IMG/VR virus record: IMGVR_UViG_2531839661_000013
Coordinates: 1 to 9,877 of that record
Direction: 5' to 3' (one strand)
Source of the DNA: a virus
Lineage: Duplodnaviria; Heunggongvirae; Uroviricota; Caudoviricetes
Length of the DNA stretch: 9,877 nucleotides
Made by a program: the position numbers and the translations under genes. Positions within the stretch are counted from its first letter, which is position 1; each line of letters begins with the position of its first letter. Below are positions 1,739 through 6,082 of this stretch, in pieces. The notes below the pieces were generated by a model, which worked only from the letters and a program-made list of their open reading frames with translations, ran no database searches and was not told the origin of the DNA.

Positions 1739-1945
1739 ATGGAAGCAATCAAAAAAGTCATCTTTCGCCAGGAAGTAAAAAAACTTATCCACATTAAGGC
1801 AGACAGCACGCTGCAAAGCATGATCAACGCCGGAGAATTCCCGCAGGGTTTTCGTGTCGGTTTGCGCCGTCGCGGATGGTATGAGGAAGACGTAATCGCA
1901 TGGATGAAAGAACGCGAACAAGAAGCGCGCGGAACGACCGCTTAA
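1739..1945 (+). CDS. alpA: AlpA-family phage/satellite transcriptional regulator (MerR-like HTH)
   Basis: 68-aa protein with the AlpA pattern: hydrophobic segment plus HTH (VIFRQEVKKLIHIKADSTLQSMINAGEFPQ), then GxRxxGWxEEDVxAWM. RBS GAGG sits 9 nt upstream. Confidence 0.85.
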   Translation: MEAIKKVIFRQEVKKLIHIKADSTLQSMINAGEFPQGFRVGLRRRGWYEEDVIAWMKEREQEARGTTA

Positions 1946-1970
1946 CATATATAGGGCAAATGATGAACAT

Positions 1971-1998
1971 AAAAAAAGCGGCCCCGAAATGGAGCCAC
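1971..1998 (-). terminator. putative intrinsic terminator for the leftward small-gene cluster (weakly bidirectional)
   Basis: On the minus strand: GGCUCC-AUUUC-GGGGCC (6-bp stem with one G-U pair), then GC and a U7 run. Lies between the convergent alpA and the 2067-2270 gene. Confidence 0.4.
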
Positions 1999-2066
1999 CT
2001 TTCTGAACAATTAACCCGCTGCGCCGTATGTGTCAACAATCATAAGCCCGGGCATGATAACCGCGA

Positions 2067-2270
2067 TCAGGCTGGTGGGCAATTATCTTGCTTGTTGGGG
2101 CCGTATTGTGCTGCCATTTTCATCCGTTCAGAACGTGAATATTTTTTTAGAAACTCATCAAGGACAAAAGCGCATGGTGCGAATCTTTCTGATTCATGCT
2201 CGAACGCCATATTTTCGTGCTCTCTGTTCGTTTTTTGCGATGGTGTATTGGTTGATTCTTTGTTGGTCAT
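2067..2270 (-). CDS. hypothetical small protein (67 aa), module-2 partner, paralog of the 2616-2843 product
   Basis: Begins ATGACCAACAA (MTNK...), identical at nucleotide level to the start of ORF 2616-2843. N-terminal pattern P-x-Q-x-T-x-x-E-x-E is shared between the two. Preceded by the conserved leader. Confidence 0.5.
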   Translation of the reverse strand: MTNKESTNTPSQKTNREHENMAFEHESERFAPCAFVLDEFLKKYSRSERMKMAAQYGPNKQDNCPPA

Positions 2271-2323
2271 TGTGTGTACCTGTAAAGCAATGCGCCGGAG
2301 TTCCTCACGCCACGGCGCTGATG
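2260..2323 (-). promoter_or_regulatory. conserved leader / translation-initiation element, copy 2
   Basis: 45-bp core (2279-2323) matches 2852-2896 at 42 of 45 positions. Contains the dyad GCGCCG-N15-CGGCGC. The 11-mer TTGTTGGTCAT (reverse complement ATGACCAACAA) at 2260-2270 is identical in both copies. Confidence 0.55.
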
Positions 2324-2327
2324 TTTT

Positions 2328-2501
2328 TTATCCTTTGGGTTCAATACCGCGTTGCTGTAATTCTTTTCGGAGTACTCGCTTGATCCAGGTGGCTAAAGAA
2401 GTGTCACCGTCTGCTTTCGCTGCCTCTTCAAGTTGTGCTCTGAATTCTTCTGGTAGCCGCATTTGGTATGGAGGCGATCGCTTTTCCAATGGTGTTGACA
2501 T
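2328..2501 (-). CDS. Arc/MetJ-type ribbon-helix-helix DNA-binding protein (57 aa)
   Basis: Hand translation of the minus strand gives MSTPLEKRSPPYQMRLPEEFRAQLEEAAKADGDTSLATWIKRVLRKELQQRGIEPKG. The segment RLPEEFRAQLEEAAKADGDTSLATWIKRVL is a classic RHH beta-strand, helix, turn, helix pattern. AAGGG lies 8 nt before the ATG. Not in the supplied ORF track because it is under the length cutoff. Confidence 0.7.
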   Translation of the reverse strand: MSTPLEKRSPPYQMRLPEEFRAQLEEAAKADGDTSLATWIKRVLRKELQQRGIEPKG

Positions 2502-2541
2502 GGTAATTACCCTTAATTACTATAGTTACATGGTAATTACC
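2502..2541. promoter_or_regulatory. putative operator: two perfect 10-bp palindromes GGTAATTACC
   Basis: GGTAATTACC at 2502-2511 and 2532-2541, 30 bp centre to centre, with a third TAATTAC half-site at 2514-2520. Immediately upstream of the Arc-like gene, overlapping its RBS and a candidate -10 (TATAGT on the minus strand). Confidence 0.5.
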
Positions 2542-2560
2542 ATTGTACTTACCGTTATAC

Positions 2561-2596
2561 AAAAAACAACGCCCCGGAAACGGAATAATCCGTTTC
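2561..2596 (-). terminator. possible terminator/insulator between module 1 and module 2
   Basis: Perfect 8-bp hairpin GAAACGGA-N4-TCCGTTTC (2577-2596), followed on the minus strand by CGGGGCGTTGTTTTTT. The U-run starts about 10 nt after the stem, so this is not a canonical terminator. Confidence 0.3.
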
Positions 2597-2615
2597 ATAG
2601 TTCCGTTTTGTGTAC

Positions 2616-2843
2616 TCATCCTGGCGGGCGATTCTTACGGGACTTTAGCCGCCGTGGGCAGCTTGCTAAAAATGCCTCCAACGCGAATAGTCCTGGTTTC
2701 ATTTCTATCGGTATTAGTTGGATATTCAGAGGATTAGCCAGTTCGGCTTCAAGGCGAGCACAGGTTTCTAACTGCCTTTGCCGAATGATTTCATCTTCTT
2801 GCGTCTGCGTGTCTTGTATTGGTAATAGTGTGTTGTTGGTCAT
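2616..2843 (-). CDS. hypothetical small protein (75 aa), module-1 partner, paralog of the 2067-2270 product
   Basis: Begins ATGACCAACAA (MTNN...). Weak RBS (CAGGG) lies inside the conserved leader. C-terminus is basic (RRLKSRKNRPPG). Confidence 0.5.
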   Translation of the reverse strand: MTNNTLLPIQDTQTQEDEIIRQRQLETCARLEAELANPLNIQLIPIEMKPGLFALEAFLASCPRRLKSRKNRPPG

Positions 2844-2896
2844 GGTACTGCCCTGTAAAGCAATGCGCCGTAGTACCTCACGCCACGGCGCTGATA
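2833..2896 (-). promoter_or_regulatory. conserved leader / translation-initiation element, copy 1
   Basis: Paralogous to 2260-2323 with the same GCGCCG-N15-CGGCGC dyad. Sits between the stop of the RHH gene (2901) and the start of ORF 2616-2843. Confidence 0.55.
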
Positions 2897-2900
2897 GTGA

Positions 2901-3080
2901 TTATTCTGATTCTTTGGCCTTGCGACGCTGGCGGCGTTTGATTTCGCCGCGCATGGCAGTAACGATAAATTGTGCGTCTGTTTCGTTTTCTTCTTTTACC
3001 AAATTCATTTCGCTTAAAACGTCTAGAGGTACTCTAGCAGTTTTTTGTTGTGACTTGTTGTTGGTTGTACCTGTTGGCAT
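2901..3080 (-). CDS. putative ribbon-helix-helix-like DNA-binding protein (59 aa)
   Basis: Internal ATG of the 107-aa track ORF, preceded by a perfect AAGGAG with 7-nt spacer. Product MPTGTTNNKSQQKTARVPLDVLSEMNLVKEENETDAQFIVTAMRGEIKRRQRRKAKESE has an RHH-like strand-helix-helix pattern and a basic tail. The N-terminal extension in the track would run across the operator dyads. Confidence 0.5.
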   Translation of the reverse strand: MPTGTTNNKSQQKTARVPLDVLSEMNLVKEENETDAQFIVTAMRGEIKRRQRRKAKESE

Positions 3081-3103
3081 CTCTGTTCTCCTTACTGTTA
3101 GGT

Positions 3104-3207
3104 GGTGTTCAGTATACGGAGAAAAAAAAATAAAAAAAGACTTGAAGTGCAAGTCACCTAAAAGTAACCTAGATTTCAAGGTGACTTGCACCAAAAAACA
3201 ACGCCCC
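3104..3207. promoter_or_regulatory. divergent control region with 13-bp inverted repeats and an A-tract
   Basis: Inverted repeat GTGCAAGTCACCT (3147-3159) / AGGTGACTTGCAC (3179-3191). Nested hairpin GACTTG-AAGTG-CAAGTC (3139-3155). A9-T-A7 tract at 3122-3138. Candidate leftward -10 TATACT (minus strand, 3111-3116). Shared 15-mer AAAAAACAACGCCCC at 3193-3207. Confidence 0.45.
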
Positions 3208-3264
3208 ACAGTGCTGGAACACATGCAGGGCGTCTAACCACAAACACTATAGAGAGGTAAATTT

Positions 3265-3459: not shown

Positions 3460-3689
3460 GCCAGGAAATCACACTACAACAGGCAGCAGAACGCGCCCAC
3501 CAAATCGAAGTTATTTGCGCACTGGCAGAGGATTACCCTGGCATGATGACCGACAGCGAATCAGGGGCAATCATCGGCTTACTTAAACGCCTTAGCGGTG
3601 AGGTCTGCGTATTCCTGAGCGATGAACAGGAAAGAAGAACGCTTATTTCTAACGAAAAAAAATGCGGAGGGGTACACCATGTGCAATAA
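3456..3689 (+). CDS. hypothetical protein (77 aa)
   Basis: ATG at 3456 overlaps the upstream stop (ATGA). RBS AGGGGG 7 nt upstream. First of a run of translationally coupled genes. Confidence 0.55.
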   Translation: MSQEITLQQAAERAHQIEVICALAEDYPGMMTDSESGAIIGLLKRLSGEVCVFLSDEQERRTLISNEKKCGGVHHVQ

Positions 3690-3939
3690 AACCACACCGG
3701 ACGCAGCCGCCGAAGCCATCAAAACGCTGATGCACGCGCTGATTGATATTTCTGTTATCGCGGACAGGGCACATAAGCACGCCACCAGCGAAACAGAATA
3801 TGCCGGGGCTTTCGTTCCTCACTCACTGGCTGTTATGCAATTTAGTGCTGATATGGCACTGAATGAGGCTAAAACCATCCTGATTACTGATTGTGAAAAT
3901 GGGGGGGGGTTATGCGTGATGATCGTTTTAATTCCCTGA
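3679..3939 (+). CDS. hypothetical protein (86 aa); reading frame crosses a G9 homopolymer
   Basis: ATG 3679 with RBS GGAGGGG. The C-terminus (ENGGGLCVMIVLIP) is translated through the G9 run at 3901-3909, so its 3' end and length depend on the tract length. Confidence 0.45.
   Translation: MCNKTTPDAAAEAIKTLMHALIDISVIADRAHKHATSETEYAGAFVPHSLAVMQFSADMALNEAKTILITDCENGGGLCVMIVLIP
3901..3909. repeat. G9 homopolymeric tract at a gene junction
   Basis: Nine consecutive G directly seen at 3901-3909. The run serves as the Shine-Dalgarno for the ATG at 3912 and lies inside the 3' end of the preceding ORF. Confidence 0.9.
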
Positions 3940-4145
3940 AACAAGAATTTTCCGGCGTTCCTGATGATGCGGCTGATGCGCTTTCGTCAATGCCAGAACT
4001 TATTAGAGCGGCTTTTTTCTTACTTTCCACGAAAGAATATAAATCAACGGGACTTGATGTACTGAATATCGCCGCCGATTATGCGGAATATGTGGCAGAG
4101 GCGCGTTACAGAAGAAAATTTCCTGAGGATGTAAGCCATGCGTGA
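3912..4145 (+). CDS. hypothetical protein (77 aa)
   Basis: ATG 3912 is two nt downstream of the G-run. Acidic, helical-looking sequence with no recognisable motif. Confidence 0.5.
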   Translation: MRDDRFNSLKQEFSGVPDDAADALSSMPELIRAAFFLLSTKEYKSTGLDVLNIAADYAEYVAEARYRRKFPEDVSHA

Positions 4146-4371
4146 TATTTACATTGAAACAATAGACCGCGCATTTAGTGCCCTTGCTTACGCTGAAGGT
4201 ATGTACGAAATATTGCAAATGTGGCTGGAAACATTTGACGATAATGAGCGTGATGTAAAGAAGGCGCGGATTATTAAATCACTGATAACTCTCCTTGAAC
4301 CTGTAATAACAGAGTTGCAGGAAATAGACTTATTGCACGACAGATATAACGAACAGCACACCGGAGAATAA
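4138..4371 (+). CDS. hypothetical protein (77 aa)
   Basis: Start overlaps the upstream stop by 8 nt. Acidic helical protein. Confidence 0.55.
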   Translation: MRDIYIETIDRAFSALAYAEGMYEILQMWLETFDDNERDVKKARIIKSLITLLEPVITELQEIDLLHDRYNEQHTGE

Positions 4372-4376
4372 AAATA

Positions 4377-4676
4377 ATGAAACTTAAATATTCTGGCTTA
4401 ACTGCCAGTGGCAACACTCACCCTAAATTTACGCGCGGTGATATTTACCGCGACCAGTACGGCGGCACGGTAATGATTAAGGGCGTGGCGGGACGGTGCG
4501 TAACTTACCGCCGTGAAGGTTACGAATATGATTGCGTGATGCCTGTTTATCAGTTCCGGCGTGATTTTTCTCTGGTACAGACCGCGCCGCATAACGTGCC
4601 CACCAGCAACGCCAGGGCACGGGCAAACATCCAGAAGCTGAAAACCATGATTAACGGATTCAGGAGTAAAAAATGA
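4377..4676 (+). CDS. hypothetical protein (99 aa)
   Basis: RBS GGAG upstream. Its stop overlaps the primase ATG (ATGA at 4673-4676). Confidence 0.55.
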   Translation: MKLKYSGLTASGNTHPKFTRGDIYRDQYGGTVMIKGVAGRCVTYRREGYEYDCVMPVYQFRRDFSLVQTAPHNVPTSNARARANIQKLKTMINGFRSKK

Positions 4677-6082
4677 AACTGGCACCGAACGTAAAACTAT
4701 TACCGAAAGATAAATACACCGATGCGATTATTTTTGCGGGTATTGATGCTCACTCATTCGCAGAGCATTACATCATTGCACAGGCCAAAAAAGCAGGCGA
4801 TCCAGTCCCTCCCGTTTATCTGGGGCGTTATCAGTTAAGCGAACTGGATAACCTCCAGATTGTTGATGATGGGCGATACAGGGCGACGGTGATACGCGCC
4901 GGAAATATTGAAGAGCCGCAGCTGTTAACCATCGCCACGAAACTGGCGATCGCCGGAGTCCAGGAGGCGCGGCTACTTTCTGAAAATTTCGAATTGCTGG
5001 AGGAATGGAGCGACCAGCTTCCACGGCTTAGGGAGGCATGGGAACGCGGGGAAAGCCTGGTCATGAAAAAAATCCCCCAGCGAAAAACCACGCTACCGAT
5101 GAGCGTTGGATCTACCGGATACGACACACAGCTTGATTACGTGGTAAAGGGGATTATTCCGGCATCGTCGCTTTGCAGCATATACGGGGCGAGCGGTTCC
5201 TATAAATCATTCCTTGCCGGATCGTGGGCGTGTCACGTTTCCACGGGCCGCCAGTGGGGAGGCCGCAGGGTGGCGCATGGCGCTGTTCTCTATGTGGTTG
5301 GTGAAGGCGGTATCGGCGTTCCGCGTCGTGTAAAAGCCTGGGAGGTTGTGCACGATGAGCAGGTGAAAAATCTGTATCTGGTAAACCGTCCCATCTTTCC
5401 GGCGGTCCCGCTTGATGTTGATGAAATGGTTATCGCTGCCCGTCAGGTGGAGCGGGAAACGGGTAAACCTGTACGCATGATTATTCTGGATACGCTGGCG
5501 CGTTGCTTTGGTGGCAATGATGAAAATGATTCCCGTGATATGGGGGCATTTATCCGTGGTTGTGACGAACTGAAACGACGCACAGGGGCTACGGTGCTGG
5601 TGGTTCACCATTCCGGCAAGGATGAGACGAAAGGCGCGCGTGGTTCCAGTGCATTTCGTGCATCACTGGACGCTGAATACCGGATACGCAGGGAGGACGC
5701 AGGAAGCGAAGCGCTGGTTATCTCATGCACCAAAATGAAGGACGCGGAGGAACTCAAAGAAGCCGCATATGACTTACGCGTGGTGGAGCTGTTTACCGAC
5801 GCTGACGGGGAGTTAATCACGTCGCTGGTGGTGGTGGATAAGCCGCGTCCTCCCGTTGAACTGGAGCGCATCGAAGAGGCTGGCAACAAGACGGAGAATC
5901 ATGCTGCGCTATGGGGATGTATCCGGTCACGCACACAGCACGGCGACAAGTGCACGATCCCGCTGTTACGTGACGATATGAAAAAGCTGGGGTACGAAAT
6001 GAAAAACTTCAGCCGCTGGCTACGCAAGCTGGAAAAAGACGCCGTTATTTATATCGACGGTGATGATGTAGGCCCTCTGTAA
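4673..6082 (+). CDS. satellite replication protein: RecA-fold ATPase (RepA/DnaB-like), primase/helicase-like
   Basis: 469 aa. P-loop YGASGSYKSF at 5183-5212 (variant Walker A, GxxGxYKS). Walker B-like hhhhD (MIILDTLA) and downstream VLVVHHSGKDE...GSSAF, typical of RepA-like replicative ATPases. RBS AGGAG 6 nt upstream. An iteron array follows immediately. Confidence 0.8.
   Translation: MKLAPNVKLLPKDKYTDAIIFAGIDAHSFAEHYIIAQAKKAGDPVPPVYLGRYQLSELDNLQIVDDGRYRATVIRAGNIEEPQLLTIATKLAIAGVQEARLLSENFELLEEWSDQLPRLREAWERGESLVMKKIPQRKTTLPMSVGSTGYDTQLDYVVKGIIPASSLCSIYGASGSYKSFLAGSWACHVSTGRQWGGRRVAHGAVLYVVGEGGIGVPRRVKAWEVVHDEQVKNLYLVNRPIFPAVPLDVDEMVIAARQVERETGKPVRMIILDTLARCFGGNDENDSRDMGAFIRGCDELKRRTGATVLVVHHSGKDETKGARGSSAFRASLDAEYRIRREDAGSEALVISCTKMKDAEELKEAAYDLRVVELFTDADGELITSLVVVDKPRPPVELERIEEAGNKTENHAALWGCIRSRTQHGDKCTIPLLRDDMKKLGYEMKNFSRWLRKLEKDAVIYIDGDDVGPL

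Follow-up and report, generated by a model that had tools for sequence, protein, structure and literature searches.

A poly-G tract of variable length at the junction of two small genes in a phage-satellite-like element of Escherichia coli

In Campylobacter jejuni, the neighbouring genes cj0031 and cj0032 are split or fused by a poly-G tract, and only the fused frame is functional. In coupled overlapping genes, such as the coat and replicase genes of RNA phages and various E. coli operons, the Shine-Dalgarno (SD) sequence of the downstream gene lies within the upstream coding region and is sometimes masked by a hairpin, while in prfB and dnaX SD-like elements stimulate ribosomal frameshifting. 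Phase variation by homopolymeric tracts is documented for the poly-G tracts of the lgt genes of Neisseria (PMC2192423) and such tracts are also described in Bordetella (PMC1891110) and in a general survey (PMC2831843). Text searches of the literature retrieved no description of the poly-G tract considered here, which bears a likeness to each of these systems.

The DNA analysed (the window) is a stretch of 9,877 nucleotides from a viral sequence record. The tract is a homopolymer of exactly nine G on its plus strand (positions 3901–3909), set in the surrounding letters GATTGTGAAAAT GGGGGGGGG TTATGCGTGA or, in a longer reading of the same junction, GATTGTGAAAAT-GGGGGGGGG-TTATGCGTGATGATCG. It lies inside the open reading frame (ORF) 3679–3939, where it encodes Gly-Gly-Gly near the C-terminal end of the product, and stands 2 nt 5' of the ATG at 3912 that opens the next ORF, of which it is the predicted SD; the repeat is thus situated both in coding sequence and at a putative expression signal. 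A GGAGGTGGC-type sequence would be a non-slippery synonymous counterpart of the run. The initial annotation had placed a nine-G run at this gene junction and derived from it the effects of a longer and a shorter tract on the reading frames, and both the position and the frame arithmetic were found to be correct. Although G9 is the sole G/C run of at least seven in the window, a G9 is present in 18 of 200 dinucleotide shuffles of the same stretch, so that the run alone is not statistically remarkable. Its significance comes from the comparison with homologues and not from the window alone, and a G run occupies the junction in every homologous locus recovered.

The upstream small gene, termed the N module (3679–3939, plus strand), encodes in the window a protein of 86 aa ending ENGGGLCVMIVLIP*, and its ATG at 3679 is the start also chosen by PGAP in relatives. 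The downstream small gene, or C module (3912–4145, plus strand), encodes a protein of 77 aa beginning MRDDRF and has an ATG of its own, 2 nt past the run; the exact C-module protein occurs on 991 contigs. The two ORFs share an overlap of 28 nt. Searches of Pfam gave no match to the N or the C protein, and in PHROGs the N, C and fused forms matched only families of unknown function, the single locus being split over PHROG 5146 (N), 24341 (C) and 2512 (fused). PGAP is similarly inconsistent, annotating the locus as a pair of hypothetical proteins, as a single fused protein or as a 'frameshifted' pseudogene. The AlphaFold2 model of the fused forms, built from a 21-sequence alignment, is all-helical and places the junction in a linker that is not helical (pLDDT 51, pTM 0.34).

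Tract length among relatives was read by a tract-agnostic scan, the pattern of which fixed only the flanks. A first sample, ascertained via a pattern in the conserved block described below and drawn from IMG/VR and three E. coli genomes, comprised 94 loci (G7 in 24, G8 in 36, G9 in 19, G10 in 4, G11 in 2 and an interrupted run in 9), and an independent sample of metagenome contigs comprised 53 (G7 in 10, G8 in 27, G9 in 12, G10 in 1, G11 in 0 and an interrupted run in 3). Combined, the 147 loci include 34 with G7, 63 with G8, 31 with G9, 5 with G10, 2 with G11 and 12 interrupted runs, the tract being uninterrupted in 135 (~92%). Classed by frame, with interrupted runs assigned by total length, ~50% belong to the G8 class, ~24% to the G9 class and ~27% to the fused class. 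The lengths follow a smooth distribution with a single peak around 8, and no period-3 enrichment of tract lengths was detected among the 147 loci. With the protein clusters included, the full range extends from G7 to G13.

Elements that are otherwise nearly identical differ in tract length as well. The two closest complete genomes (L001 and L002) have G8 and two ORFs of 79 and 77 aa, and a third (L003) has G7 and a single annotated CDS of 154 aa; between positions 1 and 5313 the window is identical to L001 save for one G. Among 75 loci with 1250-nt flanks, all pairs with 1–12 flank differences have unequal tract lengths, as do 2 of the 13 pairs with identical flanks, and Fitch parsimony requires 35 changes on the 75 tips against 36.3 for shuffled tips, which amounts to no phylogenetic signal. 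Six complete genomes with the same element, of which at least four have been serotyped as O111, differ over 5.5 kb only by G9 versus G10, one SNP and one A-run indel; in the PGAP annotation the G10 form is a 148-aa protein, and the G9 form is marked as a 'frameshifted' pseudogene. Compared across homologues, the tract is therefore variable and not fixed at one length, and it shows the polymorphism among close relatives that characterizes an SSR phase-variable locus. The description of the run as prone to slippage in the initial annotation agrees with these lengths of 7–13, near-identical elements included, as seen in assemblies.

Such variability invites the reading of the junction as an adaptive contingency locus, in which reversible, high-frequency length changes would generate subpopulations that benefit the satellite or its host by bet-hedging. 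The alternative states would be split, tail-extended or fused N and C proteins, or an altered coupling to the RgdR-like and RepA genes downstream. The uninterrupted tract in 135 of the 147 loci, the lack of phylogenetic signal in its length, the difference among six genomes whose element is otherwise almost identical and the commonness of all three frame classes (~27% fused, 50% standard split and 24% extended) are consistent with it, but the lengths are smooth and unimodal around 8 without enrichment at multiples of three, and this reading appears possible though on balance unlikely.

A sequencing or assembly error had also been offered as the source of the nine-G run. The exact 86-aa protein of the G9 state is identical on 76 contigs from several sources, and on that ground G9 appears to be a real allele, not a one-off error. 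The same N-module sequence is found in three states, as the G8 form in 114 contigs, as the G9 form in 76 and as the G7 fusion in 26. G9 makes up ~21% of loci (31/147), a share close to one in five in isolate-derived and metagenome samples alike, short-read metagenome assemblies included. For the element of the O111 genomes, three of the six genomes read have G9, as do, to judge from span lengths, most of ~30 records. An A8 run located 240 nt upstream (3655–3662) is steady, being A8 in 18 of the 19 loci that have it and A7 in one. The error explanation thus fails for the allele itself, although the read-out of this particular window may still err: the two closest complete genomes are the same as the window over 5.3 kb apart from G8, and homopolymer miscalls do occur in complete assemblies, as an A9/A10 difference in one of the six genomes illustrates. 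Weighed against the recurrence of G9, it is nevertheless improbable that the true sequence is G8 and the ninth G a homopolymer miscall. More generally, some of the length differences among assemblies could be homopolymer miscalls, and some miscall noise in complete genomes is likely. The A-run difference (A10 versus A9) lies at ~4492 of L227 (strain 2013C-4081, serotype absent from the record), in the gene after the C gene, and affects one of six otherwise identical genomes; PGAP labels it 'frameshifted', and it is probably a homopolymer miscall.

The length of the tract sets the architecture of the product, which is an N protein of 79 aa, one of 86 aa, or a fusion of 154–156 aa. With G8, the commonest allele, the N protein has 79 aa and ends ENGGGYA* (P0173) at the TGA within ATGCGTGA (3917–3919, plus strand), a stop known from the annotation and sequence of L001 and L002 that is out of frame in the window. 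With G9, the window's own state, the N protein is +1-shifted, the tail LCVMIVLIP replaces YA, and the stop in use is the TGA at 3937–3939 (plus strand), 25 nt beyond the downstream start codon. The G7 allele encodes a fusion of 154 aa (ENGGVMRDD) and the G10 allele one of 155 aa (ENGGGVMRDD; P0037), and the protein clusters add G11, G12 and G13 forms (ENGGGGYA, ENGGGGLCVMIVLIP and ENGGGGVMRDD), the G7, G10 and G13 alleles together accounting for the N–C fusions of 154–156 aa. The in-frame fusion predicted for a tract one G longer thus exists as a natural allele. The shorter form predicted for the loss of one G likewise occurs naturally, as the 79-aa protein with the expected ENGGGYA end, but the supposed truncation is the modal state and the G9 of the window the variant.

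A fused lineage found on 36 contigs reads GGVIRDD at the junction and has lost the internal start codon, which suggests that in this lineage the fusion is presumably functional and adds to the points in favour of a contingency locus. At greater distance (37–50% identity), homologues are mostly separate N proteins of 77–84 aa, without the Gly tail and many of them ending HA, and separate C proteins of 75–77 aa; fused distant homologues are few, one example being a protein of 141 aa at 54% identity.

Which of the frames is the reference state can be judged from other junctions. The stop/start overlap ATGCGTGA recurs at 4138–4145, where the C gene meets the next small gene of the operon (4138–4371, plus strand; PHROG 2196), and this joint reads CATGCGTGA (4137–4145), the upstream protein ending SHA* (VSHA*) and the downstream one beginning MRD. 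The C gene is linked by the same ATGCGTGA to another upstream gene in a second arrangement, context B (context A being that of the window). From these two occurrences, the frame ending at the TGA of ATGCGTGA is the standard junction of the operon. The G8 allele recreates this overlap (xATGCGTGA) as it is used elsewhere in the operon, and, as judged from the sampled loci, G8 is the modal state and the window carries a +1 allele. The stop that overlaps or abuts the next start in coupled gene pairs is accordingly found as ATGCGTGA in G8 and as the 28-nt overlap in the window.

Context B was revealed by a narrow species-level scan with C-module homologues, which gave a single locus, in Escherichia ruysiae. 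There, the N-module homologue and the C gene are separated by a gene of 128 aa (L095, 2622–3008), and the same arrangement is present in 13 of 75 protein-anchored IMG/VR loci (e.g. L110, L116 and L172), for a total of 16 junction sequences. The junction reads ATTCA-G6-TAAAC-ATGCGTGA, and the upstream protein ends GGKHA*. The run ranges from G6 to G9 and is G6 in 12 of the 16 junction sequences, hence short and mostly stable; with G7 the 128-aa gene ends at the TAA, and with G8 it is fused to the C gene, the predicted junction being IQGGVNMRDD. In a 167-aa protein (P0129), the context-B gene and the C module are fused at a CTGCGTGATGAT repeat that the two have in common.

The initial annotation also took the G run for the SD of the downstream gene, and this remains plausible as a prediction. 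The predicted duplex of the run with the 3' end of 16S rRNA has a free energy of -11.1 kcal/mol, the strongest of the operon (neighbours, -6.6 to -10.7), and the run probably doubles as the SD of the C gene. The spacer between the run and the ATG is TT (2 nt) in the window context and UAAAC (5 nt) in context B with its G6. Since the spacer of the window context is only 2 nt long, at least seven Gs would be needed for a workable SD pairing distance, which would account for a long and hence mutable tract.

The first 13 codons of the C gene (3912–3950, plus strand) form a block conserved at the nucleotide level. In 75 loci anchored via the C protein, the minor-allele fraction at third positions is 0.005 over codons 1–13 as opposed to 0.135–0.213 over codons 14–68, so that synonymous sites vary ~30-fold less in codons 1–13 than in the remainder of the gene. 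The block follows two unrelated upstream genes, those of contexts A and B. It could reflect a constraint of RNA structure or initiation, or else a recombination joint between gene modules. Selection for mutability of the tract was also considered from its non-G sites (1.2% per site, against 18–37% minor alleles at four-fold sites of the flanks), and this test was rejected, the adjacent ~40 nt of coding sequence being equally invariant and the tract inseparable from the conserved initiation block.

A local RNA hairpin is predicted at 3904–3937 (plus strand; dG -11.5 to -13.9 kcal/mol, z -1.6 to -2.9), in which UAAUUCCCU (3929–3937) forms the 3' arm and the opposite arm consists of the 3' portion of the run, the UU spacer and the A of the AUG, so that both the SD and the start codon would be covered. 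It is predicted in contexts A and B alike, the UAAAC spacer and UUCA flank of context B using the same 3' arm in a longer stem. The 40 distinct junction sequences vary almost only in run length and at one T/G site, leaving no covariation to test, a larger context of 131 nt folds no better than its shuffles, and no Rfam match was found in the window (E <= 0.1). Together with the conserved synonymous sites, a hairpin that masks the SD and AUG would, as a hypothesis, fit translational coupling of the N and C genes.

Fused proteins might in principle also be made from any template, by programmed ribosomal frameshifting (-1 on G GGG GGG in G9, or +1 in G8) or by slippage of RNA polymerase, in which case the length of the tract in the DNA would be of little matter. 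The heptamer G GGG GGG does permit perfect re-pairing of tRNA-Gly, as a slippery sequence should, the run is itself an internal SD-like element, and fused proteins exist in many lineages, there as DNA-encoded alleles. The frame relation of N and C is not conserved, all three relations being common (27%, 50% and 24%), which argues against a dedicated frameshift. Most distant homologues are, in addition, separate genes, and no significant downstream stimulatory structure was found: the 131-nt context folds no better than its shuffles (z = +0.81), and the sole local hairpin uses the run as an arm. Documented slippage of E. coli RNA polymerase, moreover, concerns A/T runs (PMC6260861), whereas the run here is G. 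Programmed frameshifting or transcriptional slippage is thus unlikely, and the chance that recoding explains the fused forms is slender.

The explanation preferred here, at a probability of about 0.62, takes G9 as a heritable allele of a slippage-prone poly-G tract that serves as SD and Gly linker and varies in length because the variation is tolerated. The tract sits where two small genes meet, within the early or replication operon that an integrative, phage-satellite-like E. coli element carries. The SD role and the short spacer would keep the tract long, and hence mutable, and length changes would build up by replication slippage. In every frame the N module would be translated and the C gene would keep its own SD and ATG, so that both modules would be delivered and changes in length would be tolerated, a tolerance that the allele frequencies suggest. 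Such a change would alter the tail of N, the covalent linkage of N and C, or the site of upstream termination relative to the C start, and the likely effect would be modest (on tail, linkage and coupling efficiency) and not on/off.

The phase-variable or frameshift-controlled switch put forward in the initial annotation found no support, both modules being encoded in all three frames and the lengths being unimodal without period-3. The same fact, that neither module is abolished in any frame, weighs against an adaptive contingency locus, as does the behaviour of context B, where a 5-nt spacer goes with a G6 SD and the run is short and mostly stable; and since conservation of the tract is inseparable from that of the whole 50–60 nt initiation block, the SD role is the simpler account of it. 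On the other side, sister elements carry a second variable G run in the next gene and a third before another start codon, which, like the uninterrupted tract in ~92% of loci, would also be compatible with selection for mutability. Taken at its fullest, as a selected mutational switch on a phage satellite, one of several in the element family and a contingency locus in E. coli, this account seems doubtful.

The second run, found in sister elements and absent from the window, reads CATGCCGAACA-Gn-ATTTATTTTCTG and falls within the gene next after C; its motif begins 308 nt downstream of ATGCGTGATGATCG, a motif in the start region of the C gene. The run is carried by L033, L043, L054, L059, L060, L068, L207 and L208, and the eight distinct contigs have G8 (four), G9 (two), G7 (one) and G5 (one), of which G8 and G5 are in frame while G7 and G9 break the frame. 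The third is present at ~8894 of L011 (plus strand) and ~8437 of L033 (reverse strand), with G10 in one and G8 in the other; it lies 2 nt before a start codon (GCGATAATTAC-Gn-AT-ATGCCAAAG), in an SD-like layout as at the junction studied.

The element itself is best seen in L001, an E. coli locus 99.4% identical to the window and annotated by PGAP, where it is an integrated element of ~10 kb beside a tRNA-Pro gene and downstream of yejM. Its genes are an integrase, an AlpA-type regulator and three leftward small genes, then a rightward run of overlapping genes consisting of an Icd-like gene, a hypothetical gene, the two junction genes, another hypothetical gene and a DUF4222 gene. The overlapping small genes are followed by a RepA-family helicase, PerC and a fusion of ClpP protease and major capsid protein. 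The replication gene for the helicase (4673–6082, plus strand) ends the overlapping run in the PGAP annotation of L001. By gene content, the element resembles a P4-like or capsid-forming phage satellite, and is here called phage-satellite-like. Two copies of a 75-nt direct repeat (2260–2334 and 2833–2907; 83% identity) each span the start region and leader of a leftward small ORF (2067–2270 and 2616–2843), and a plus-strand ORF of 445 aa in the same region (1900–3237) looks spurious, as PGAP annotates leftward genes there in relatives. All 49 substitutions and the remaining indels between the window and L001 lie after 5313, nearly all within ~1 kb (5314–6292) that takes in the 3' half of the gene for the RepA helicase together with the spacer behind it, a pattern typical of a recombination patch. 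The locus family is present in 1120 of 5426 complete E. coli genomes, the tract itself having been read in ~10.

Two genes downstream of the G run, the gene at 4377–4676 (plus strand) encodes a DUF4222 protein of 99 aa (Pfam E = 2e-23, over residues 16–68) with A10 and an RGD at residues 20–22 (R20-G21-D22). The RgdR/ECs1581 family comprises prophage-borne proteins of ~99 aa with an RGD at residues 20–22 and a conserved core at 20–68 (PMC3378721); RgdR/ECs1581 activates type III secretion of the LEE, represses motility and is encoded on the cryptic prophage CP-933C (PMC3378721). The protein of the window fits this published description. The element of the window (~10 kb), with its integrase, AlpA-type regulator, small ORFs, 99-aa RGD DUF4222 protein, helicase, PerC and capsid genes, resembles CP-933C or a defined cf-PICI by gene content.

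Reading-frame polymorphism driven by homopolymers is considered rare in E. coli, and here it is common, recurrent and carried by a widespread satellite family, in an operon that also holds an RgdR-like regulator and a replication helicase. For annotation, recognition of the tract removes the noise that comes from one locus being spread over three PHROG families and labelled inconsistently by PGAP. Should tract length influence coupling or the linkage of the proteins, it would be an inexpensive means of making satellite behaviour heritably heterogeneous; otherwise, the locus would show cleanly, in nature, how a gene junction can be constructed to render frameshifts harmless. Were the tract a switch, it would toggle split, tail-extended and fused early proteins together with the coupling into the RgdR-like regulator and RepA helicase, and subpopulations might differ in satellite induction and helper exploitation, or in the regulation of virulence and motility of the host. 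The locus is in either case a tractable candidate for repeat-mediated heterogeneity on a mobile E. coli element.

Set against the systems described at the outset, the junction shares with SSR contingency loci a run of at least seven G in or beside coding sequence, a length that differs between close genomes and shifts the frame, and a presumed origin in replication slippage, a likeness drawn here from assembled sequences. It departs from them in that no frame is OFF and both modules stay encoded, that the host is E. coli, in which such loci are uncommon, that the carrier is phage-satellite-like and that the run doubles as a predicted SD. As at cj0031/cj0032, tract length determines whether neighbouring ORFs yield a single protein or two, but here the split state is the commonest, distant homologues are mostly separate, and the downstream ORF has its own start. 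Coupled gene pairs provide a counterpart to the ATGCGTGA overlap, to the SD in the last codons of the upstream gene and to the predicted hairpin over SD and AUG, yet the SD of this junction is a mutable homopolymer and the coupling geometry is polymorphic, coupling and hairpin both being predictions. Frameshift and slippage sites, such as those of dnaX, prfB, the phage lambda G/GT genes and IS elements, likewise have a slippery homopolymer where frames could join; here, unlike at those sites, the frame relation is unconserved, no stimulatory structure accompanies the run, the run consists of G, and in many alleles the fusion takes place at the DNA level. In mechanism, the locus belongs with the hypervariable loci based on homopolymeric tracts and with cases in which a tract governs the fusion or fission of genes.
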